From: a virus
Length of the DNA stretch: 64,000 nt
Virus record (IMG/VR): IMGVR_UViG_3300032268_001605
Location: 32,001 to 96,000 of that record
Direction: 5' to 3' (one strand)
This document shows, one piece after another, positions 2,003 to 43,379 of this stretch; position 1 is the first letter of the stretch, and every line of letters begins with the position of its first letter. The notes beneath the pieces were generated by a model. That model was not told the DNA's origin. It saw nothing but the letters and a program-made list of their open reading frames with translations, and searched no databases. The translations under genes were made by a program, and so were the position numbers.

Positions 2003-4294
2003 ATGGCGAATATATCAACTAATACTACCACAGGCGAATTAATATTAAGTGACTCTTGGTCTATATCAGCAACCGGACCCAGTGGACCACCTCAGTTTTC
2101 TCAAGCTGGTGATGAATTTATCTACAGTTATATAAATTTAGAACACGTTGAGACTCTTAAAAATTTCAACTTTGATTACACTGGGCAAACCGAATTGAGA
2201 TATTTAGAAGTTTACTACCGAATTAGTAGAGATCAAATTGCATGGACAGATTGGTTATCAATCACAGATAATAAACTTACACTTAGAAATGATTCTATAA
2301 GCTTTTATGAAAATACTACACGTATCACTAACTTTCCACCATTTAGTTCAAGAGACACTATGTTTCTTGACCTTAAGTTTACAAGAGAGGGACTTTCGAA
2401 TATTGGAAACATAAAATTACTAGAATATCAACTTCAAGGAACACTTGAGAGGAATATAGTAGACGGACTTAGTCAAGTTGCGTTAACAACCACTACCGAC
2501 CCGGTTATAATAAAACCACCGTTTATTTATAAAGTTTTCAAAATTGAAGATATTGAAATCATTTCAAATAGCACAATAGATGTAGACTTTACAGTCAAAT
2601 ATAGATTTTCACAAGATTATGGTAAATCTGTTACAGACTGGGAATTCTTAACAAAAGAAAATATAAGTTCAGCTAGAATTACACCAATTAGATTTTTCCA
2701 AATTGAATACCTCCTGCAAGTTAACAACACATCAGTAATTATCTATGACATCAACCTAATTGGGGATTTTCAAAACGTGAGCCTAGACTACTTCAAAACT
2801 AATTTATATGGAATTCGAGAAGATTGCAATTGTTTGAAATTGGGTATCGTAAATGATCCATCGACTTTTCCCGAAATTCATCCCGGTGTAGAGATTAAAA
2901 CACTACCTACTGGCGTGGAAGCTCTTTCACCTCTACCCCAATTATCAAATGAACAACAGGCAAACCTGTTTAAACCTTACCAATTACAACAAGCTACTGA
3001 CTTGCTGAATAAAATGAGTAATGATGCTAATTCAATTTTCGGACACGAGGTTGTTTATTTTCTAACTGACCCAGATAAAAAAGGAATTGATTACTCTTTC
3101 CATGAATATCAACTCTATAACTTTGTATCTGAATGTCTTATTAAAGTTTCTGTAGAAAATAATCAATTTCCTGAGAATACCGGAGCTATAAACCAATTCG
3201 ACCTCTCACTTTTTGACTCTTTTGAAATTCATATTCCTAAAAAAGTTTTTAAAGAATCATTTGGTGCAGATAAAAGACCATCTAAAGAAGACTTCTTGTG
3301 GTTTTGCGATATAAATAAAATGTTTCTTGTAGAACACTCACAAGCTTTTAGAAGTTTCAATAATAATTCTATCTATTATAAACTCATGTTGAAAAAATAC
3401 AATCAAAAAGCAAATGTTATTGGTAATAATAAAACAATTTCAGATAAACTCAATGCACTCACAAGAAATTCAACTATTGATGAGTTATTTGGATTAGAAA
3501 ATCAACAAGATAAAGACTCTGTTGCTAACCAAAATCAATTTAGAACACTCACTCAAGACCCAGTCAGATCTATTATCAGTGCACAAATTGTTAAAGAATT
3601 TGTCTTCAATGCAGAGAATATAATAAGCAATTACCATTACGACCTATCCACTGTAAACTTTACAGCAACACAGTCTAACCCAGCAGTAATCTATCAAAAC
3701 TTCAAAAGATATTTCAATGAAGGTAGTAACCTCTCTTTTATGTGTTGGTTTAATATTAATAACTTTGCTATAAACGATAATTATCATCTTTTTAACTACT
3801 ATGATAACACCAATCTTTTTGGTTTTGATGTTAACATAACAAATAATATTTCTACCGTGAAGTGGAACTCCAATAGTTACTCTATGACACTCAATAACTC
3901 ACTTGAAGAAGAAACTTGGTATGGTTATTTAGTAAATGTGAACCAAAGACAAAGAAAAATAACCCAATACATCTATAAAAGAAATGTAGATGATGAAGAA
4001 GATGCAGAACAATTGACATCAACCCACTTGAGACAAGTTTATAAAATGGAAGAGGACTTGACACCAGTAATATTCACCTTAGATGGTATTGAAGCTAAGT
4101 TATTAAGTTCTGACATGAAAATTACCAATATTAGACTATTCACTGAAACAGTACCTGAAACAGAAATTAATAAACTTATGAACCAGAATATACTGAGAGA
4201 TGATACTAAATATTTACTATTAGGTGATAACGCTAATAAAAAATTAGTCCTACCTAATTTTTCAATTGGTCAAATTGGTGAAGGTGAGGTTTAA
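2003..4294 (+). CDS. Probable virion structural protein (neck/gp14-like middle region, LamG/ConA-like C-terminus)
   Basis: 763 aa, preceded by TATATATA. The segment FGHEVVYF...DYSFHEY resembles neck proteins; LSFMCWFNI/EETWY/ITNIRLF resembles a beta-sandwich. Confidence 0.5.
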   Translation: MANISTNTTTGELILSDSWSISATGPSGPPQFSQAGDEFIYSYINLEHVETLKNFNFDYTGQTELRYLEVYYRISRDQIAWTDWLSITDNKLTLRNDSISFYENTTRITNFPPFSSRDTMFLDLKFTREGLSNIGNIKLLEYQLQGTLERNIVDGLSQVALTTTTDPVIIKPPFIYKVFKIEDIEIISNSTIDVDFTVKYRFSQDYGKSVTDWEFLTKENISSARITPIRFFQIEYLLQVNNTSVIIYDINLIGDFQNVSLDYFKTNLYGIREDCNCLKLGIVNDPSTFPEIHPGVEIKTLPTGVEALSPLPQLSNEQQANLFKPYQLQQATDLLNKMSNDANSIFGHEVVYFLTDPDKKGIDYSFHEYQLYNFVSECLIKVSVENNQFPENTGAINQFDLSLFDSFEIHIPKKVFKESFGADKRPSKEDFLWFCDINKMFLVEHSQAFRSFNNNSIYYKLMLKKYNQKANVIGNNKTISDKLNALTRNSTIDELFGLENQQDKDSVANQNQFRTLTQDPVRSIISAQIVKEFVFNAENIISNYHYDLSTVNFTATQSNPAVIYQNFKRYFNEGSNLSFMCWFNINNFAINDNYHLFNYYDNTNLFGFDVNITNNISTVKWNSNSYSMTLNNSLEEETWYGYLVNVNQRQRKITQYIYKRNVDDEEDAEQLTSTHLRQVYKMEEDLTPVIFTLDGIEAKLLSSDMKITNIRLFTETVPETEINKLMNQNILRDDTKYLLLGDNANKKLVLPNFSIGQIGEGEV

Positions 4295-4307
4295 AAATAA
4301 AAATACT

Positions 4308-4711
4308 ATGGATTTAAATAAGAATTGGACAAGGGAAGATAATGATAAAATGAGAGAATTTATAAAAGAAAATAAATCTCCTGAATTTATAAGAAACTAT
4401 TTTAAAAATGATAAGCTTTTTTATCACCCAAAAAAAAAATACTATCAAAGTAAAAAACCTCAGTTATACCAACATTCAAAAAGAAAATAGAAAATTTTGA
4501 GGGGTACATTACTGAAATAAAATATGAAGAATTAAAAACAGATTTTTCTTTTGATTTTGAAAAATCATCTTTTTTTGAAGACGAATTCAACTACATATAT
4601 AAATTTCAAACCATTTCTGGTAATAGATACGTTGTTGACTTTATTTACTTAAAAGATACAATCGGTGAGTGCAAAAATGAGAATATATACAATATATCAT
4701 TTACACGATAG
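4308..4711 (+). pseudogene. Frameshifted hypothetical gene
   Basis: MDLNKNW...KKYYQ continues in another frame (KTSVIPTFKKKIENFEGYITE...ISFTR*) after A-runs at about 4430-4457. Confidence 0.5.
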
Positions 4712-4832
4712 GAAATATTAATTTTAATTTTTTAATTTTTTAACATATATTATATATAAAAGCTCTGTATGTACCTTTAAACTTAATTCTATATAATTAT
4801 ATAAAAACAAATAGATTTTAATTCTAATATTT

Positions 4833-6317
4833 ATGAACAATCAGGAAAAATTGAATAAATTAGACTACCTGAGGAAAAAAGCTTCTGAATTGAAAATGGA
4901 CGTTGATTACTATAACAGTCTCCAATTATCGCTGAAGTTGATCCTTAACGGTAGTTATTTTTAGCCCCCACTAGCAATAGTGGGGGTGATTTAAGGAGCA
5001 TTCGCCACGCCATATTTTATACTTTTCAATCCAAATGTAGCAGGCACAATAACAGCAGAAGGTCGTAATCTAACCAAAACCATGTCTGATGACAATGAAA
5101 GATATTGGTATACTATGTGGCATACTGAATCTTGGGTTCATGAAAAACTTAAGATTAAAAATGTTACACAAATACCTGATAATCAACATGTTAGTGTCTA
5201 TGGGGATACTGACAGCGTCTTTGTAGGATTTGAACCAGCAATCAATTCTTGTGAGTGGAAGAATCAATTATTTAATTCTGAATACTTGAATTCAGTTGAT
5301 AAACCTTTTACTATACTTACTAAGTCTAAATTTAAGGCTAAGTTTTCTAATTCTAACCTACAGTCAGCCATACTAATTGATAAGTTAGATGATGTAACTG
5401 AAAACAAAATAAAGATTGCTTTACAAAAATCCAAGGTAGTTCTGGTTGATGGTGAGTTTGTCAAAGATTGGAATTTAGATAAAATCTTAAATGATTACCC
5501 CTTAGAGGTTTATTATAATTGGCAAAGAGAACTAGACTTCATTCACGGGATTGACAAAGTAAGGTTCGCAGATTATTTTAAACAGTGTTTAGATGATTTG
5601 GCAGCTTCCTACGGTGTTGACAACAAACAAGATTTTGAGTTAGAGAGGGTTTCTGAATCAATTATTAATATTGCTAAGAAGAAGTATATTCAACATATTG
5701 TATATGAAGATGGTATACCTTACGATAGATTGACTTACATATTCCCTAAAGGTGTTGAACTCGTTAGATCTTCTACACCTCTATTTGCCAGAGATAAGAT
5801 TATTGGTATCGTTAAATATCTTTTTGAACATCCTGATACCTTCAATATTAAGGAGTTATTGAAACTGGTTAAGAATTTAAGAAAGGAATTTGACTTATGT
5901 GTACCTGATAGAATTGATGAAATATCAATGCAGTCTTCTTGTTCAAAGTATGAAGAAAAGGTTTTGAATGACAAGGATAAATTAGAATTTGCTACGGGTG
6001 CACACTTTGCTGTTAAAGCTAGTGCCCATTTTAACTATCTACTTCATAGAAATAAGAATTTACAATATAAGTATGAGTTTATTAAATCTGGAACAAAGAT
6101 AAAATATTATTATTGCAAAGACAAATCTCTCAATGATATATTTGCTTACATCAGAGGTTCTTTTCCAGTTGAAATGAATCCACCAGAAATAGATCTTGAT
6201 ACACAGTTCGAGAAATGTATCCTATCTCCGATAAATTCGATTATCGAACCCTTGGGATTACCACTAATAAATAAAAGATTATCAGTTGTAATGGATATTT
6301 TTAGTTCTGGGTTTTAA
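4833..6317 (+). CDS. Family-B DNA polymerase, C-terminal subunit (split gp43-like), interrupted by a 36-nt insert at 4959-4994
   Basis: ATG 4833 reads MNNQEK...QLSLKLILNGSY|insert|GAFATPYF...ITAEGR, in frame with ORF 5082-6317 carrying YGDTDS, KKKY, KGVELVRSSTP and KIKYYY. Confidence 0.9.
4959..4994 (+). other. In-frame 36-nt coding gap with GNRA hairpin (candidate bypass element or minimal intron remnant)
   Basis: Sequence ttt TAG cccccacta GCAA tagtggggg tgatt TAA: a perfect 9-bp stem and two in-frame stops. Confidence 0.8.
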
Positions 6318-6319
6318 AA

Positions 6320-6349
6320 AAAAAGAGTCACCAAATGGTGACTCTTTTT
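6320..6349. terminator. Bidirectional intrinsic terminator
   Basis: aaaaagagtcacca-aa-tggtgactcttttt between convergent genes. Confidence 0.85.
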
Positions 6350-7435
6350 TTATATATTCAAGTTTTTTTCTAATAAGAGTTGTTTAGTTGAAAATCTAAT
6401 TACTTTGTCCGCATCTCTAGTTTCGAAGTTAGGTAATTTAATTTCATCTAAAGTTTCATCATCTGATTTTTCTGTCTGTAGATACAATGGGTCTATTTCG
6501 TTGAGAGGTACCTTGATTATGAAATAAGATTTGTCATTAGCTACAATTAATATGTCAGTTGTTATTTTTCTTACATCTCCTGCTGAGACTAGCTCAATAT
6601 AATCAGATGTTCTTGACTTAATTCTCGCTAAAGGTTTTACTTGTATGGTAACTTTTCTCCTATTGTTTATAATTGCAAAAGCATCTATACCCTTTTTATC
6701 TTCCTCGGTAGTTGGCTTTTTAAATTCTATCTGAGTGCCTTTGCCAAGTTCTATCGTATAATCACCAAAAACTTTGAGTGCTCTATCTTCTGTATCTTTA
6801 CCTTTTAGAGTTGTTATCTCCATTATTCTGTAATATTTATCAAAATATTTTCCTTTAATATTAAAAATATCAAACTTATTTTCTTCTAAAAAATCCAATA
6901 ATTCTCTATAATCATTTGATAAATTGAAATCTCTAATAATTGCCATTCTAAAAGTTCTGTTGTTTACCCACTTTGATAAATATTCCGTGTTTAAAATTAC
7001 ACCCTTTTCATCAACTATTCTATTTGATTTAAATGGATCTATATGTGAATAATATTCTTTAATTATATCTGCAATAGTATTCATGACTATTTTATTTTCA
7101 TCATCTGTATATGTGGCACCTATTTCATCGTAAAATATTTTTCTACTATAATCAATTGTACCAGCCTCATTTTTAGCCACAACCTTTAAAATATTTTCAC
7201 CTGGTTCAAGTTTAATTTTTTCGGCGAATAACTTTCCATTTTTCACCTTATAATTCAATTTACTAACAAATTCACCATTTAATTTTAACCATATTTGCCC
7301 ATCATCTGCCCATTTTACTATTGCTTCAACACTAATAAATGAGTCATATGTTTTTCTATCTTCTGATGGAGAAATAAAATTTATAGTAGGTCTATACTTT
7401 GGAATAAATTTATTATATTCAAGTAAAAATTTCAT
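6350..7435 (-). CDS. Ig-like domain plus PD-(D/E)XK-like domain protein
   Basis: N-terminal ...LEPGENILKVVAKNEAG (Ig-like); C-terminal EEDKKGIDAF...TIQVK. Confidence 0.5.
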   Translation of the reverse strand: MKFLLEYNKFIPKYRPTINFISPSEDRKTYDSFISVEAIVKWADDGQIWLKLNGEFVSKLNYKVKNGKLFAEKIKLEPGENILKVVAKNEAGTIDYSRKIFYDEIGATYTDDENKIVMNTIADIIKEYYSHIDPFKSNRIVDEKGVILNTEYLSKWVNNRTFRMAIIRDFNLSNDYRELLDFLEENKFDIFNIKGKYFDKYYRIMEITTLKGKDTEDRALKVFGDYTIELGKGTQIEFKKPTTEEDKKGIDAFAIINNRRKVTIQVKPLARIKSRTSDYIELVSAGDVRKITTDILIVANDKSYFIIKVPLNEIDPLYLQTEKSDDETLDEIKLPNFETRDADKVIRFSTKQLLLEKNLNI

Positions 7436-10298: not shown

Positions 10299-11678
10299 AT
10301 GATTAAGAACATTCACGAAAAACTAATGGAATCTGTTCAACAAATGTTGATTGACACTAAGGTTTCACTACCTTACTACGGAAGCTTCAATCTGTTCGTC
10401 AATTTTGCTGAAAGAAAAGACATCGATACCTGTGCTGTAAATATGACTGCTAAAGGCATGAATTTCTATTTCAATTCAGAATTCCTCGATAGACTTACTC
10501 AAAAAGAAGTCAACTTCATTACACTTCACGAAGATTTTCACCTTCTTTGGAACCACCCTAAAAGAACAATTACCGGTCAATACGACCACCGACTTTCTAA
10601 CATTGCCCAAGATATGATTATCAACCATATCATTTGGGAAGATATACCTAACTCCTATGTCGAAATACCAAAAGATAAAGATGGTAAGAACATGGCTCTT
10701 TTTATTCCGAAAGAATACACAGGTAAACTAATCTTTGAAGAAGTTTATGAATGGCTAAGAGACGAAAAAGAAAAAAGAGATAAACAGAAACAGTCTCAAC
10801 AATCACAAGATGGTGATGAACAAGGTGATTCTAAAAGTAAAGGCAAAGGCAGTAAAAGTGATAAAAACGGCAATGGTGACCAGAGTAGTGGTGATGGAAA
10901 TGAGAAAGGTGATGATAAGTACGGTCCATATGGTAAGAATCCTAAGAACGAAAAAGAAACTATTGACACCTGGTCATTAGATCAGATTCTTGACAACTTA
11001 GATTCAAATGGAGGTCAATACTTAGATACTCACTTAGGTGATGAAATCCCAGAAGAAATGAGAGAATCTATGGTGAAAGATGCTATGGATAGACTACAAG
11101 CACGTGGACTTTCTGCAGGTAACATCGAGACTACCCTAAACAAACTGAGAAAACAAAGAAAAGATTACTTGAAAGAAATCAAGAGAACTGTTTCTAATTT
11201 GATTTTTGGTACAAAGAAAGAAAAGACTATTAAGAAACCAAATAGAAAAGGTATTCAAGGAGTAAAGGGCAATCGTAAAGTTAAGACTAAGATTAATGTG
11301 GGGCTTGACACCAGTGGCAGCATGGGTGGCCATGGAACGTTCGAAAGAGTTCTTTCTTATGTCTATCAAAACGATATCGAGATTAACTTTATGGAATCTG
11401 ACACACAAGTGAACTGGGTTGAAAAATTAAAGTCTAAAAAACAATTAGAGTCAATACCTATAAAAGGTTTGGGTGGAACTTGCTTGAGCCCGATGATAGA
11501 TTATATCGTTGAACATCACAATGACTGTTCAACAGTTTTACTAACGGACGGATACACTGATTCTTTAGATTTCTCTAAAGTAAAAGGAAATGTTTTGATA
11601 ATTTCTGTTGGTGTCCCTTGTCCAATTCTAAAATCTAATGGTAAGGTTAAACAGATTTGTATTGAAAACACTCATTAA
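10299..11678 (+). CDS. DUF2201-type metallopeptidase-like plus vWA domain protein
   Basis: HEDFH, NIAQDMIIN, MIDAS motif DTSGS, GGT and LTDG. Confidence 0.85.
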   Translation: MIKNIHEKLMESVQQMLIDTKVSLPYYGSFNLFVNFAERKDIDTCAVNMTAKGMNFYFNSEFLDRLTQKEVNFITLHEDFHLLWNHPKRTITGQYDHRLSNIAQDMIINHIIWEDIPNSYVEIPKDKDGKNMALFIPKEYTGKLIFEEVYEWLRDEKEKRDKQKQSQQSQDGDEQGDSKSKGKGSKSDKNGNGDQSSGDGNEKGDDKYGPYGKNPKNEKETIDTWSLDQILDNLDSNGGQYLDTHLGDEIPEEMRESMVKDAMDRLQARGLSAGNIETTLNKLRKQRKDYLKEIKRTVSNLIFGTKKEKTIKKPNRKGIQGVKGNRKVKTKINVGLDTSGSMGGHGTFERVLSYVYQNDIEINFMESDTQVNWVEKLKSKKQLESIPIKGLGGTCLSPMIDYIVEHHNDCSTVLLTDGYTDSLDFSKVKGNVLIISVGVPCPILKSNGKVKQICIENTH

Positions 11679-11708
11679 AAAAAGTCTCACTTAAGTGAGA
11701 CTTTTTTT
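11678..11708. terminator. Bidirectional terminator (perfect palindrome)
   Basis: aaaaaagtctcacttaagtgagactttttt. Confidence 0.85.
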
Positions 11709-13475
11709 AATTTCATATTTGATTTTCCCACAATCCCATACTTTATTTAGATCCAGTTTTGATTCAGACACACCAGTTATAGACTTCTTGAACCCAGACT
11801 TATGTTTTCTAACTCCGTTTAGTACATATTTGTAGTCTGGTTTTGTTTCATATAATTTTATGAATCCGATTTTTTCATATAAATTACCCTGACTCCAATC
11901 TTTATCTGCGTATGAAATTATTCTATTTGGATTATATTCTTTAATAAAATGATTCAATAATTTTGATGCACCACCAACTACATAATGATTTGATATATTG
12001 CAGAATCTAGATAAATTCCATTCATTATTAGCCATTTTTTTTCTACCTTCAAATTTATCGAAAGTCATTACCCCAACTAGTTCATCTTGATAATAGAGCC
12101 CGAAAGATTTATTTATATTTGGATAATCTCCTTGGATATGATTTATTTTAAGAAATTGCCTACAAATGTTATAATCAATTATTTCCTTCACATCACATTT
12201 TCTTGCATGTATTTTAGTAGATAATCCTAAAACGTTCATTATTTGAGATTCTATTATGGATCTTTTGAAATCCCAATCATCTTCCCAAATATTTATAATT
12301 CTAATACCCTTATCTCTAAAACGATTTAATTTATCAATATGGTAATCTTTGCTTCTAAATTTATCGGAATGAAAGTATAATCCATTAAATTCAAAACCAA
12401 TTTTCAAATTCGGAAGATAGATATCAATTTCTAAACCATCACGATACGATTGTATTATTTCACCTCTGAAATTATTTTTTATAAAATTATAAATATCCTT
12501 CTCCTTTATTGATTTATGTTCACCAATTGGATTGCATATTGTACAAATTGACACACCACTTTTTGTCCTTCTAAAAAAGTTATCAGTGTTTATTTCGAAA
12601 TTATTATTACATAAATCACATTTGAATAAACTTATAGAATTACCAACATAGTTTATATAATTTGGATGATTGGCGATATTGAAGTTGTTTCGTCTAAATT
12701 CTTCATTTTGAGATGAATTCTTCACACCGTATTTTAGAATATAATTAAACTCTCTTCTATTCTTTATTTCTTCAGACTGAATTGGATGATAGAATCCATA
12801 CCTTTCCAAATTTGTATTTTTAGTTTTTTCCCTCAATTCAATAGATTTCTGAGGATTAGTGACTCCCCATTTCACCAACAACGTATTGATTGACTTTGAA
12901 AACACATCATTATTTTGTAACGGTGACATATATCCATATCTTTCAAGGTTTGTGTTCTTAATTTTATTTTTAACCTCTTCAGATTTTGATGGTGATGTGA
13001 ATCCATATTTCTCTAAATTAGTTTTTTCTGATTTTTTTTGTTTATCTTCTGATTGTAAGTACCACTCAACACCATATTTTTCCAAATTAGTTTTCTTAAC
13101 CTTTTCTGTATATTCTTCTGATTTTGTATAAATTTCAAATCCATATCTCTCTAAACAAGTTTTTTTTCTTTTATCCACGGAATCTGTAGATGACATATAT
13201 GTCTCCGATCCGTATTTTTCCAAATTTGTTTTTTTTATTTTTTCTTTTACAATTGGAACTTGCGATATATTTGTCACACCATATTTTTCTGTTAGAATTT
13301 CTTTTGACCTTATTGCAGCACATTTTTTAGAGCAACAAAAATTTAAAGCAAAATCTTTAGTACTTCTAGTGTATTTTATCATTTGTACAGAGACAATTGA
13401 ATCACAATAGATACATTTGGCTTCTATCAATTTTCTCGATCCCCTCGAAATATTTGTAACATCACTGATTATCAT
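11691..13475 (-). CDS. Hef-like free-standing endonuclease (KTNLEKYG repeats, Vsr/DUF559-like nuclease, GNAT-like C-terminus)
   Basis: About eight KKTNLE(K/R)YG repeats; EIDIYLP..IGFEFNGLYFHS; IWEDDW; GGASKL..SYAD; DCG. Confidence 0.8.
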   Translation of the reverse strand: MIISDVTNISRGSRKLIEAKCIYCDSIVSVQMIKYTRSTKDFALNFCCSKKCAAIRSKEILTEKYGVTNISQVPIVKEKIKKTNLEKYGSETYMSSTDSVDKRKKTCLERYGFEIYTKSEEYTEKVKKTNLEKYGVEWYLQSEDKQKKSEKTNLEKYGFTSPSKSEEVKNKIKNTNLERYGYMSPLQNNDVFSKSINTLLVKWGVTNPQKSIELREKTKNTNLERYGFYHPIQSEEIKNRREFNYILKYGVKNSSQNEEFRRNNFNIANHPNYINYVGNSISLFKCDLCNNNFEINTDNFFRRTKSGVSICTICNPIGEHKSIKEKDIYNFIKNNFRGEIIQSYRDGLEIDIYLPNLKIGFEFNGLYFHSDKFRSKDYHIDKLNRFRDKGIRIINIWEDDWDFKRSIIESQIMNVLGLSTKIHARKCDVKEIIDYNICRQFLKINHIQGDYPNINKSFGLYYQDELVGVMTFDKFEGRKKMANNEWNLSRFCNISNHYVVGGASKLLNHFIKEYNPNRIISYADKDWSQGNLYEKIGFIKLYETKPDYKYVLNGVRKHKSGFKKSITGVSESKLDLNKVWDCGKIKYEIKKSLT

Positions 13476-17983: not shown

Positions 17984-19534
17984 CTAACGATTCAGTTTTT
18001 TTATGTATTTTTTGCTAACACAATCATATATCCTTAAATATTCATCTAAATTTATATTATCCATTTTACCCTTTCTGAATGTAAATCTGTGTTGTTTTTT
18101 CAATTGTTTATCATAATACCAAAAATTCGGTTCTGTATTGTGAATAAATTCAAACCCATTTTTTTCATAAACATTATTATCTATACTCCAATCTCTATTT
18201 GCATAAGTCACGATTTCCTCGGGATTTATCTCTCTTTCAAAATGTTTCAGTATTTTTGAAAATGCACCAATAACATTGTATTCCAGTTTAGACGCAAATC
18301 TGTATAATTCATAAGTTCCTGACTTTGATTTGTTCCCGGTAGATATTCTAAGTTTACCAAATGTCATAACACTAACTAACTCATTCTCAAAATATAATCC
18401 ATATCTTATTGAAGAATTGATATTACCTTGTAAATGATTATTTTCCAAAAATTCAGAAGAATCTTTATGATTAATTTCCATTATTTGGCACTTTCTAGCC
18501 ATTATCTTAATTTTACCTAAACCTAATAAATTATATAATCTAGATAACACAATTTCCTTTTTGTATACCCAATCATCTTCCCAAATGTGTATAAGGTTAA
18601 CACCCTTATTTTCACAAGTTTCTTTTTTATTTATGTGATATCTTTTATCTTTGAATAAGTCAGAGTGCCAATATATACCATTAAATTCTATAGCTATTTT
18701 TTTCTCTGGGATAAATATATCTAATTCTTTACCACCAAGAATCTTACGATCTCCGAATTCAACACTAAAATATTTTGATAACTCATCAAATATATCTCTC
18801 TGGGTGGTAAATTTATATGAACTAATCGGATTGCAGTTAAGACAAGGTTCTACCTTATATCTGAAGTATCTTAATCTCAACAGAGAATTTCTGATTAAAT
18901 ATTCCCTACCACATTTAGTACATAGAATTTCTAACTCGCCCTCTTTTGGTATATTTTTAATATTTAAATCCTGATACAAAGAATAGATATTCTTTTTATA
19001 TAGATTAAATCTGGTTTGTAAACTTTTCTTCAATAATAAACAATTTTGTCCAGAATATTCAACATTATATTTATTTAACATTGTATTTATCTGTTTCTCC
19101 TTTACATCAGAATTGAGTGTAGGTGAAACAAATCCATACTTTTGTATATTTGTATTCTTTTGTTTTTCCTTTACTGACTCTAACTTTGACGTGTGCTCAA
19201 CTCCCCACTTTTCTAAAGTATTTGACTTTCTTTTTTCTAAAGCTTGAGGCAATGAATACTTAACAGCACAATTTTTCGAACAAAAGTCGTTATATCCTTC
19301 TTTAAATCCAATAAATCTTTTATCTTTGTCAAAACAGACACAACATTTCGGAGTTAATTCATGATTATTCAAATAGTTATAAATTACTTGAGAAAACTTT
19401 AAACCATTCTGATTATTTAAATTTTGAAAATTTTTTAAATCTAAATAAAAATTTTTTAAATTTTTTTGAACCCATTGCTCCCTTAATTTGTTTTTGTTTA
19501 AACAACCGTTGTCGAAGAAAATATTTGTATCCAT
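17984..19534 (-). CDS. Hef-like free-standing endonuclease with GNAT-like C-terminus
   Basis: Repeats NTLEKWG/TNIQKYG; ELDIFIP..IEFNGIYWHS; IWEDDW; same architecture as 11691-13475. Confidence 0.8.
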   Translation of the reverse strand: MDTNIFFDNGCLNKNKLREQWVQKNLKNFYLDLKNFQNLNNQNGLKFSQVIYNYLNNHELTPKCCVCFDKDKRFIGFKEGYNDFCSKNCAVKYSLPQALEKRKSNTLEKWGVEHTSKLESVKEKQKNTNIQKYGFVSPTLNSDVKEKQINTMLNKYNVEYSGQNCLLLKKSLQTRFNLYKKNIYSLYQDLNIKNIPKEGELEILCTKCGREYLIRNSLLRLRYFRYKVEPCLNCNPISSYKFTTQRDIFDELSKYFSVEFGDRKILGGKELDIFIPEKKIAIEFNGIYWHSDLFKDKRYHINKKETCENKGVNLIHIWEDDWVYKKEIVLSRLYNLLGLGKIKIMARKCQIMEINHKDSSEFLENNHLQGNINSSIRYGLYFENELVSVMTFGKLRISTGNKSKSGTYELYRFASKLEYNVIGAFSKILKHFEREINPEEIVTYANRDWSIDNNVYEKNGFEFIHNTEPNFWYYDKQLKKQHRFTFRKGKMDNINLDEYLRIYDCVSKKYIKKLNR

Positions 19535-19616
19535 AGTGCTTATATAGTATATATTCAACATAGGTTCTTTCCTCATCTAAAATCATATCAAAAAAATAAA
19601 AAAAAGATAAAAAAAA

Positions 19617-41729: not shown

Positions 41730-43379
41730 TTAATAAAAAATCCATTTTTGTGTACCACAATCGAATATTCTATATATTTTTTTACTTGCCATTATTTCTA
41801 ATTCTGTCATTTCGGGATTAGCTCCTTCTCTAACTAGCTTATCTTTTCTGAAATTGAATCTGTGACTTCTAATTCCATCTATTATATAGAAGTAATTTGG
41901 TTCTGAGTTATGTTCTAAATTAAATCCAAGTTTATAATACATATTCCCATTAGATCTAGAATAATCACTATAACTAATAACTTTATTAGGAATATATTTA
42001 TCTAAAAAATACTTAAATAACTTAGAAGCACCACCAACAACTGTTGTATTTAATTTATTACAAAATCTAAGTAATTCATATGTTCCTTCTTCACTCTTTT
42101 GTCCAAGAGATATTCTTAACTGACCAAATGTCATTAAACTAACTAATTCATCTTCATAAAAAAGTCCAATTTTTATTTTCGATCCAACAAATCCTTGAAT
42201 GTGATTAGTTTCTAAAAATTCTCTAATTAATTTATTATCAGATATTTCCTTAATTCTACAATTTCTGGCAAATATTTTATTAGATGTTTTTTTCAATTTA
42301 TTTAGTATAATTGATTTAACTATATCCTTTTTGAACATCCAATCATCTTCCCATATATGAATTAATTCAATATTTTTCTCTTTACATATATTTGTCTTAT
42401 TAAGGTGATATCTTTTCTCTTTATACAGCTCAGAGTGCCAATATAATCCATTGAATTCAAATGCTATTTTTATATCAGGTAAATAAATATCTAACTCAAT
42501 ATTATCCACAATATTTCTTTTATTTTGTAAAATTTCATTATTATAGTTATCTTTTATGAACTCATAGACTTGTAATTCGGATCCGGATTTGCCAACATTG
42601 TTACATATAGTGCATATTGTTGTGTTGTACTTTTTCCGCATATGATACATATGCCCAGTAATTTTAAAATTATTTTTACAGGACTCACATTTAACTATAT
42701 AGAGCCCTTCCTCATAGTCTATTTCTATTATGTCCGGATTTTTATTTATGAAAATATTTTTTTTTGTGATTTTTGAGGATGATATAATTTTATCTCTTAT
42801 AGATGGAATTTGCATACTATAAGCGGAACCATATTTTTCAATCATTTTTTCTAATGATTTATTTCTTAAAAATTCGTTATGAAGTGAATGTGTAGATCCA
42901 TACAAATGAAACATACTTTGTTCCATTTTATCTCTTATTTCTTTTTTTTGAATTGGATAATTAACCCCGTATCTATCAACATTCGTATTAACTATTTTTT
43001 TCTTAAAGTCATCTAATTTATTAAAATGTCCACCATATTTAGACTCACACGTTTCTTTAAACTTTTTCTTAAAATCATCAGTTTTAGAATAGTGATCTAC
43101 TCCCCATTTTTTATTACTTTTATATGGAATTGAACACTTTATACACCTATATTTACCATCATCGGATTTTTGAACTTGTTTATTATACGCGTTATAAAAA
43201 CATTCCTTTTCTATAAAACAAGAATCACAAGAAACTAAAACCCTCAAATTTGAGGATTTTTTTAAGTGTTCGATTGGTATCTTAATAACATCACCAACTG
43301 ATACATCATAGTTAAGAGTTCTATAATAATTCAATGTAGGACATTGAACTTTAATTTCTAATTCCTTTGTTATAATCAT
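41730..43379 (-). CDS. Hef-like free-standing endonuclease with GNAT-like C-terminus
   Basis: ELDIYLP..FEFNGLYWHS, IWEDDW, GGASKL and DCG. Confidence 0.8.
   Translation of the reverse strand: MIITKELEIKVQCPTLNYYRTLNYDVSVGDVIKIPIEHLKKSSNLRVLVSCDSCFIEKECFYNAYNKQVQKSDDGKYRCIKCSIPYKSNKKWGVDHYSKTDDFKKKFKETCESKYGGHFNKLDDFKKKIVNTNVDRYGVNYPIQKKEIRDKMEQSMFHLYGSTHSLHNEFLRNKSLEKMIEKYGSAYSMQIPSIRDKIISSSKITKKNIFINKNPDIIEIDYEEGLYIVKCESCKNNFKITGHMYHMRKKYNTTICTICNNVGKSGSELQVYEFIKDNYNNEILQNKRNIVDNIELDIYLPDIKIAFEFNGLYWHSELYKEKRYHLNKTNICKEKNIELIHIWEDDWMFKKDIVKSIILNKLKKTSNKIFARNCRIKEISDNKLIREFLETNHIQGFVGSKIKIGLFYEDELVSLMTFGQLRISLGQKSEEGTYELLRFCNKLNTTVVGGASKLFKYFLDKYIPNKVISYSDYSRSNGNMYYKLGFNLEHNSEPNYFYIIDGIRSHRFNFRKDKLVREGANPEMTELEIMASKKIYRIFDCGTQKWIFY

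Follow-up and report, generated by a model that had tools for sequence, protein, structure and literature searches.

A candidate family of translational bypass elements at motif B of a split family-B DNA polymerase gene in large freshwater phages

To our knowledge, gene 60 of phage T4 is the only case in which long-range ribosomal bypass has been demonstrated experimentally. The 50-nucleotide (nt) gap bypassed in T4 gene 60, itself the downstream piece of a gene split in two, follows a GGA take-off codon at codon 46; a TAG stop in the hairpin is directly adjacent to it, and GAG stands before the landing GGA. Another kind of untranslated insert is represented by the Byp elements of Magnusiomyces capitatus mitochondria, which are short, G+C-rich and mobile, lie in an A+T-rich genome between matching take-off and landing codons, and occur many per genome and in many genes. 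Among DNA polymerases, gp43 is split (43A/43B) in some T4-like phages, split inteins occur in polymerase genes, and group I introns are known in phage DNA polymerase genes. Here we describe a 36-nt insert at positions 4959-4994 of a 64,000-nt stretch of the IMG/VR virus record IMGVR_UViG_3300032268_001605 (the window). The insert interrupts motif B of a family-B DNA polymerase gene (polB) and belongs to a family of similar inserts in related phages. It is probably skipped by ribosomes through programmed translational bypass, such that 4833-4958 and 4995-6314 would yield one polypeptide with an intact motif B. The published bypass cases are the T4 gene 39/mobA/gene 60 cassette and its myovirus topoisomerase homologues, all in topoisomerase genes, and the take-off and landing codons of gene 60 homologues are synonymous and served by one tRNA in most family members (10.1101/2022.08.31.505936). 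The word 'polymerase' occurs 0 times in this preprint by Manning and Atkins (10.1101/2022.08.31.505936), and a literature search of papers without their supplements returned none that describes a bypass element in the DNA polymerase gene of a phage.

The window represents the reverse strand of an IMG/VR viral contig of 102 kb, which has 29.8% G+C and is 14% complete according to CheckV. Among the products encoded in the window are a baseplate wedge protein and several large proteins of the HNH or homing-endonuclease-like kind. The first coding segment of the polymerase piece (4833-4958, plus strand, as are all features of the gene) reads from ATG 4833 through 42 codons, MNNQEKLNKLDYLRKKASELKMDVDYYNSLQLSLKLILNGSY, and ends in KLILNGSY, which supplies the K-x3-N-x2-Y of motif B. 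Its last codon, TAT (Tyr, 4956-4958), is the proposed take-off codon and lies 6 nt 5' of the C-run of a hairpin. The first codon past take-off is TTT (4959-4961) and the second is an in-frame TAG stop (4962-4964). Folding places a hairpin at 4965-4986, composed of CCCCCACTA (4965-4973), a GCAA loop (4974-4977) and TAGTGGGGG (4978-4986), with 9 base pairs (bp) and a tenth pair from G4964-U4987. The fold has a free energy of -19.9 kcal/mol (z = -3.08), and 1 of 200 shuffles was equally good. A Shine-Dalgarno (SD)-like G-run, TGGGGGTG, followed by ATT, occupies 4981-4991 and ends 3 nt 5' of the proposed landing codon. Between the hairpin and the resume codon stand TGATT and then TAA (4992-4994), the proposed landing codon, which equals the Tyr codon TAT at two of three positions. 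The second coding segment (4995-6317) comprises 440 codons and a stop and carries the G of motif B, the fingers, motif C (YGDTDS) and the thumb; it reads GAFATPYFILFNPNVAGTITAEGR...VYGDTDS from 4995 to the stop at 6315-6317, in frame with the ATG 4833 segment.

Deletion of 4959-4994 gives KLILNGSYGAF, a K-x3-N-x2-YG motif B identical to that of uninterrupted relatives. No ATG, GTG or TTG lies in frame between 4995 and ATG 5082. An earlier reading of the letters of this stretch (the original prediction) had described the stop/hairpin/stop layout, the in-frame continuation, the restoration of motif B and the lack of an ATG before 5082; each of these was reproduced, and the last extends to GTG and TTG. 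It had also proposed that reads be mapped across the insert. The contig of run X1, the likely source sample, retains the insert at a depth of 16.6 with 0 differences. The contigs of X2, X3 and X6 do not cover 4950-5000, and because only the X1 contig spans the insert, this exact allele has no independent read support.

Similar inserts were sought in relatives by protein-to-DNA fits that allowed jumps, at 64 loci comprising the window, 51 viral-contig loci and 12 metagenome loci. An insert of 36-73 nt was found at 45 of the 64 loci, with two in L079, and 18 loci lacked one; in L077 the contig end falls inside the element. L038 was counted among the insert-free loci, its 120-nt 'jump' at residue 5 being a fitting artefact. 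Omitted from the fit were loci in which the match starts downstream of the N-terminal region or the locus is truncated before it (L003, L025, L029, L047, L050 and L055-L057), as well as L061 (35% identity) and L081; the N-terminal pieces of the L003, L047 and L055-L057 contigs were recovered later as L203 and L206-L209. The distinct elements number 35 in the main set and 3 from a later scan, 38 altogether. They are inserted at six codon positions (after residue 33, 34, 37, 40, 41 or 42 of the polymerase piece) that all fall within ten codons of motif B. Two gaps eight codons apart interrupt the gene of L079 (1399-1500), with CTT>CTA after residue 34 and TAT>TAA after residue 42. The longest gap, 73 nt, occurs after residue 37 in L071-L073 and lands on GTA; the stem there runs for about 18 uninterrupted pairs, with 26 pairs over the whole predicted fold, and includes the GTT take-off codon and the stop.

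All elements follow a common plan of a take-off codon, a stop that is mostly the second codon, a C-run/G-run hairpin and a short tail rich in A and U. Of 35 elements, 25 have the in-frame stop as the second codon after take-off and 5 as the first; in the other 5 it comes later or is absent. The third base of the take-off codon is T in 33/35 elements, and the distance from this codon to the C-run is 6 nt in most (range 5-7). Division of the gap lengths by three leaves remainders of 0, 1 and 2 in 9, 15 and 11 elements, respectively. Multiples of three are thus not preferred, and the gap is therefore neither read through nor an in-frame linker. Hairpin free energies range from -17.5 to -36.1 kcal/mol. 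Across the 38 elements, each of the stem positions 6-10 stays paired while using 4-6 pair types, the three pairs at the base are C-G without exception, and the C-run always forms the 5' arm and the G-run the 3' arm. The loop is of the GNRA type in 15 of the 38 and UUCG in 2.

The G-rich arm also contains the best anti-SD pairing site. In 30 of 35 elements this site ends 3-8 nt upstream of the landing codon, for an anti-SD motif that may not be that of the host; 3-8 nt is the spacing between a start codon and its Shine-Dalgarno sequence, and the GAG of gene 60 stands in a comparable place. Over all elements the distance from this site to the landing codon ranges from 3 to 19 nt. In the window the run is UGGGGGUG, ending 3 nt before TAA, and its duplex with an anti-SD motif has a free energy of -9.7 kcal/mol when calculated with a 16S 3'-tail motif that may differ from that of the host.

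The insert hairpin pattern is confined to polB in the genomes of 4 of 5 relatives, and one extra match is intergenic (genome G002, between convergent open reading frames, ORFs). The original prediction had suggested a scan for similar inserts in other genes; none was found elsewhere in the 102-kb contig. In the 102-kb contig the only perfect G+C-rich hairpins (perfect stem of at least 7 bp, at least 60% G+C) are that of the insert and a terminator hairpin at 6325-6351. A pattern search of viral contigs with TATTTTTAGCCCCC gave at least 114 matches, with a polymerase context at 0 of the 80 loci returned, and was discarded as too generic.

The codons at the two ends of the gap are paired by a simple rule. 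At the five sites that do not encode Tyr, each of the 25 distinct elements has a landing codon that is in phase and synonymous with its take-off codon (GCT>GCA/GCT, CTT/CTC>CTA, GTT>GTA, GGT>GGT and TCT>TCA). Over all sites, the first two bases are common to the take-off and landing codons in 28 of 35 elements, as compared to 65 of 1330 control triplets inside the gaps. An in-phase synonymous pair is the signature that un-pairing and re-pairing of a peptidyl-tRNA would leave, and gene 60 homologues are reported to obey this rule too (10.1101/2022.08.31.505936). Cutting and joining of the RNA offers no reason for such duplicates. A U-ending take-off codon followed by an A- or C-ending landing codon may be one apparent rule of the bypass.

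The Tyr site, after residue 42, is less regular. Its landing triplets in 13 distinct elements are TAC (2), TAA (3, including the window), TAG (1), AAC (4), GAC (1), AGC (1) and CAA (1), of which 11 equal a Tyr codon at two or three positions. The nearest elements to that of the window, L074-L076, share with it TAT TTT TAG CCCCCA, the ATTTA before the last base and a compensated stem, and they land on TAC where the window has TAA. A stop at the landing position recurs with different hairpins in L016 (TAA), the second element of L079 (TAA) and L080 (TAG). Among 17 distinct uninterrupted genes, this Tyr is encoded by TAT in 9 and TAC in 8, and the next Gly by GGA in 4, as compared to a TAT take-off in 12 of 13 Tyr-site elements and resumption on GGA in 11 of 13. 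This bias may reflect shared cassette ancestry or selection.

The gene that carries the insert is the predicted C-terminal half of a split family-B polymerase. Segment 4995-6317 matches PF00136 and PHROG DNA polymerase families, and the joined chain contains both motif B (K-x3-N-x2-YG) and motif C (YGDTDS). In uninterrupted relatives the C-terminal gene starts from the equivalent Met and reads through an unbroken ...KLVLNGSYGAFAT...; one of these, L006, aligns with motif B of 1s5j, a solved family-B polymerase. The lysine-rich 42-residue N-terminus, with M first, is conserved in relatives with and without the insert and has the identical length in uninterrupted ones. The exonuclease domain (PF03104) was not found in the 102-kb contig. 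It occurs in one ORF of 265-515 codons in the records of 4 of 5 relatives, in three of which the ORF (501-515 codons) also matches PF00136 positions 17-151. This exonuclease-bearing N-terminal gene lies more than 60-100 kb from the C-terminal gene in the relatives examined.

A second intact polB copy, which the original prediction had named as a finding that would count against a functional role, was absent from relatives that are 98%, 98% and 89% complete. In these three near-complete relatives the PF00136 matches comprise only the distant N-terminal piece and the interrupted C-terminal piece, with no second copy of motifs B and C; the interrupted gene is therefore their only one. The ratio of nonsynonymous to synonymous substitution rates (dN/dS) is 0.042 between the window and L070 over 438 downstream codons.

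Two side observations were made on this gene in relatives. In one clade a split intein at motif C divides the C-terminal piece once more, such that the polymerase is made from three genes: an N-intein (PF14890) follows about 85 fingers residues, and a separate gene begins with a C-intein ending ...VHN/S. The loci are L075:1501-2076 and L203:2501-3076, together with L047, L050, L055-L057 and L003, where it lies upstream of the match starts; most of the fitted split-intein polymerases also have the bypass gap. In about 13 relatives a phage IF3 gene (PF05198 and PF00707; L006:5092-5631) lies directly upstream of the polymerase C-terminal gene, at gap-bearing and gap-free loci alike. No IF3 gene was found in the incomplete contig of the window, and a link between IF3 and bypassing is pure speculation.

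At least 27 changes in the presence or site of the element are required on a tree of the downstream protein (64 rows, 50 of them different). The insert-free L023 groups closely with L024 and L026, which have the element at site 42, and the nearest relatives of the window on this tree, L070 and L069, have theirs at site 33. The downstream proteins of L016 (site 42) and L017 (site 33) are identical. Downstream of +53 the two are about 100% identical in DNA as well, whereas in 60-column blocks the identity is only 16-51 of 60 between -184 and +52 and about 14-31 of 60 further upstream. The first ~42 codons, the gap and the upstream sequence were therefore exchanged as a unit.

An endonuclease gene is linked to the inserts. 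One ORF family (c3) ends about 100 nt upstream on the opposite strand at 16 of 33 insert-bearing and 0 of 17 insert-free loci with upstream sequence, counts that are taken over loci lacking phylogenetic independence. Its members comprise 13 ORFs of 260-389 codons and an 86-codon remnant in three loci of one lineage (L010/L012/L013). The family matches DUF7487 and PHROG homing-endonuclease families, and by eye its C-terminal end reads as an HNH motif. Upstream of some genes a GIY-YIG + NUMOD3 endonuclease gene takes the place of the HNH-type gene; it is found at L044 (4993-5757, minus strand), which has a gap, and at L034-L036, which do not. Neither the already split polymerase, with its N-terminal half elsewhere, nor a mobile homing-endonuclease cassette family had been seen in the original prediction.

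The following sequence of events would account for these features. With the Tyr codon UAU in the P site, the ribosome would meet UUU-UAG and the very stable C-run/G-run hairpin that starts 6 nt downstream. Peptidyl-tRNA-Tyr would release the weakly paired UAU and the ribosome would slide across the hairpin. The SD-like run would then position the P site at UAA, a further 3-5 nt along, and tRNA-Tyr would re-pair there via the first two positions; GGA would be read next and synthesis would continue. The element itself would be the scar or passenger of a mobile cassette, consisting of an HNH-type endonuclease gene, the first ~42 codons and the gap, that invades the C-terminal gene of the split family-B polymerase at its 5' end and is found in one clade of large freshwater phages. 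Loss of the target site of the nuclease is a probable effect of the gap, as has been proposed for MobA and the gene 60 gap.

The original prediction had offered a gene-60-like bypass with tRNA-Tyr moving from TAT to TAA as one of three explanations. The comparative data favour it, because the inserts occupy six sites and have in-phase synonymous codons, stops, covarying hairpins and lengths that do not favour multiples of three. What doubt is left about the bypass concerns removal at the RNA level and the efficiency of landing on UAA. Landing without a cognate codon is put forward more tentatively: peptidyl-tRNA-Tyr might resume on a stop (UAA here, UAA or UAG in three others) or on NAC (five elements).

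Several observations weigh against the bypass as proposed. Cognate landing at the Tyr site is limited to 2 of 13 elements (TAT>TAC; L074 and L075), and the matched-codon rule of gene 60 fails there. In the window the landing codon UAA is non-cognate, with two of three positions equal to a Tyr codon, and is itself a stop; take-off and landing codons (TAT and TAA) are accordingly not a pair for one tRNA, unlike those of gene-60-type bypass. The A-site codon after take-off is UUU, an ordinary sense codon, and the stop is second rather than first. The contig represents about 14% of the genome by CheckV, and this phage may have a spare polymerase copy. The locus counts are drawn from rows that are kin to one another and lack phylogenetic independence. 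No RNA run containing 4600-5600 was listed, which leaves removal at the RNA level in contention. The c3 family has no similarity to T4 gp60.1, the MobA remnant (E = 0.65), and neither a homing endonuclease gene nor a c3 ORF was found beside the window element. Between a 763-codon ORF and ATG 4833 (4295-4832) there is only a 60-codon ORF without a Pfam match and its frame-shifted continuation; no free-standing HNH gene adjoins the gap, unlike in a MobA-like cassette, and the window therefore shows a gap without a nuclease gene.

Gene 60 and the polB inserts have much in common. In both, an essential replication enzyme is split in two and the gap lies about 40-46 codons into the downstream piece (codon 46 in T4 and codon 42 in the window); the take-off codon is followed by a stop; a stable hairpin with GNRA or UUCG loops stands at the 5' end of the gap; an SD-like purine run precedes landing by a few nucleotides, with an A/U-rich tail; and a free-standing HNH-type gene is linked to the gap, with some lineages having the gap and no nuclease, as in the window. 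The window itself has the stop soon after take-off, the stable 5' stem-loop and the SD-like run before landing. The putative polB bypass family nevertheless differs from the published topoisomerase cases in host gene, nuclease, hairpin, sites and landing. Its host is motif B of a family-B polymerase rather than a topoisomerase gene, and its endonuclease is of the DUF7487 type and encoded on the opposite strand. The stem is a C-run/G-run whose 3' arm doubles as the SD-like site, and the stop is mostly the second codon. Six sites are used, whereas gene 60 homologues have one (plus or minus one codon). Gaps are 36-73 nt, as compared to the 50-nt bypass of gene 60, and landing at the Tyr site is on a near-cognate or stop codon.

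The other known systems resemble the locus in part. Unlike Byp elements, the polB inserts occur one per genome and always in polB (two in L079), and they would be bypassed by a bacterial, not a mitochondrial, ribosome; the 102-kb contig has one such hairpin rather than many copies over several genes. As in split gp43, one gene encodes the N-terminal part with the exonuclease and motif A and another the C-terminal part with fingers, motif C and thumb, but in the polB relatives the two genes are more than 60-100 kb apart and the C-terminal gene has an additional untranslatable gap. Group I introns likewise are selfish elements that interrupt a polymerase gene where it is best conserved; the insert differs from them in being only 36 nt long, without a ribozyme core or Rfam match.

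The alternative readings, listed under the label ALTERNATIVES, were weighed against these data. The main open rival is RNA excision by some enzyme, in which the hairpin would be a mobile micro-intron cut out by a host or phage nuclease and its ends rejoined by a ligase. Such a process is unlikely. It would account for the restoration of motif B by exact removal, for gap lengths that do not prefer multiples of three and for the Tyr sites that often lack a matching landing codon, which splicing does not need; the conserved, covarying hairpin could serve as its recognition structure. However, splicing does not predict junction duplications that are in codon phase in 25 of 25 non-Tyr elements. The 3' junction lies at widely differing distances from the hairpin (3-19 nt between the G-run site and the landing codon), which argues against a cut measured from the structure. 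The early stop, a G-rich SD-like arm spaced as it would be from a start codon, and a place some 40 codons into a split gene are all features that recall gene 60. Rfam matches and a catalytic core are both absent, and 36 nt is far below the size of any self-splicing intron known to us. The collapsed group I intron of the original prediction fared no better: Rfam searches of positions 4200-5400, at E up to 1, gave only two chance snoRNA matches, the P3-P9 core is absent and the hairpin-junction distance is variable. The comparison of orthologues that it had called for found no constant insert length (36-73 nt), and it did find covariation of the stem.

A dead allele or an assembly collapse had been its third suggestion. 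For the family as a whole this is improbable, given the single copy and the dN/dS of 0.042; for the window allele it has some standing because the landing codon is a stop. A C-to-A change in a TAT...TAC ancestor like L074-L076 would have made the landing codon TAA, and the allele would be defective or poorly expressed. The nearest element relatives differ at precisely the landing base, the genome is incomplete and could hold a spare copy, and the site is spanned only by the likely source run. Even so, we think such damage rather unlikely, with a source assembly at depth 16.6 without a variant, an intact 440-codon downstream frame at a dN/dS of 0.042, a stop (TAA or TAG) at the landing position of L016, L080 and the second L079 element, near-cognate NAC at that of five further elements, and no spare copy in near-complete relatives. 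Because of this recurrence of TAA/TAG, the dN/dS, the read depth without variants and the lack of a spare copy in relatives, we favour UAA as an adequate landing codon for tRNA-Tyr, positioned mostly by the SD-like run, over a recently damaged allele. An assembly or sequencing artefact, for which it could be said that the exact insert is covered by one assembly only, the likely source, has next to no probability, because 38 distinct elements of the same plan recur in dozens of independent assemblies.

It is highly improbable that two polypeptides are made instead, with a stop at TAG 4962 and a restart past the hairpin, and that a 43-residue peptide and a 440-residue chain assemble non-covalently. 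The polymerase is already encoded in distant genes, a split intein re-splits it in some relatives, and a strong SD-like run precedes 4995. Yet no in-frame ATG, GTG or TTG is available from 4995 to 5082, and the resume codons of the family are AAA, CTA, CTT, CTC, TTG, TTA, TAT, TCT and GGA/GGT/GGG, among which only TTG, in L042, is start-like. The break point shifts among six codons in one helix-forming motif, and a break between the Y and G of motif B is structurally implausible. Other candidates were rejected outright. Stop-codon reassignment fails on an insert with both TAG and TAA and on relatives whose inserts mostly shift the frame, and a genome-wide repeat (MITE or byp-like) fails on one copy per genome, at polB. 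Take-off at TTT 4959 with landing at TTT 4990 would enter a frame that stops after 16 codons and does not encode the polymerase. Landing on TAT or TAC inside the hairpin loop, as could be imagined in some Tyr-site relatives, meets a closed frame in L041 and would place at least 9 residues between Y and G.

If they are bypassed by ribosomes, the polB inserts would constitute a second independent family of bypass elements, situated in a catalytic motif of an essential DNA polymerase. They offer 38 natural sequence variants at six codon sites, some with two gaps per gene or gaps of 73 nt, and would turn an isolated curiosity into a comparative system of dozens of natural variants for dissecting the rules of bypass, in which the determinants of take-off, sliding and landing could be tested. 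The most difficult case comes from the window, where a stop codon occupies the landing position. Non-cognate landing, if true, would mean that an essential polymerase gene relies on a form of bypass that is guided by the SD-like run and depends little on the landing codon. Gap-bearing polymerase genes are split or truncated by gene callers, and polymerase-based phylogenies and completeness estimates of large freshwater phages are therefore affected.

The surroundings of the gene were also inspected. A likely intrinsic terminator, read from the sequence, follows the polymerase at 6325-6351 and consists of the hairpin GAGTCACC/aaat/GGTGACTC and a T-run. The original prediction had given the gene both a promoter and a terminator. 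The hairpin and T-run are present, although a consensus scan for promoters and terminators did not list the 6325 hairpin as a terminator. The promoter was not borne out by a sigma-70 scan, which gave no site in 4700-4832 and no overall excess (14 found as compared to 12.5 expected). An A/T-rich block upstream of ATG 4833 (4722-4781) is identical to a block of L075 at 51 of 60 positions, with surroundings that are much less alike; it could represent a phage promoter that has been conserved, or else belong to the cassette.

Upstream of this block, at 4308-4710, a 60-codon ORF (MDLNKNWTREDNDKMREF...) ends at 4490 and the -1 frame is then open to 4710. The -1 continuation follows an A10 run (4431-4440) and a TTCAAAAAG stretch, and Pfam returned no match; the pair could be a frameshifted or decayed small gene. 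Selfish nuclease genes abound elsewhere in this genome. On the minus strand, three ORFs that are paralogues of one another and 530-594 codons long (11691-13475, 17984-19576 and 41730-43379) match PHROG homing-endonuclease/HNH families (phrog_3339 and phrog_559), and a fourth nuclease-like ORF, on the plus strand at 10299-11675, is HNH-like (phrog_1314).

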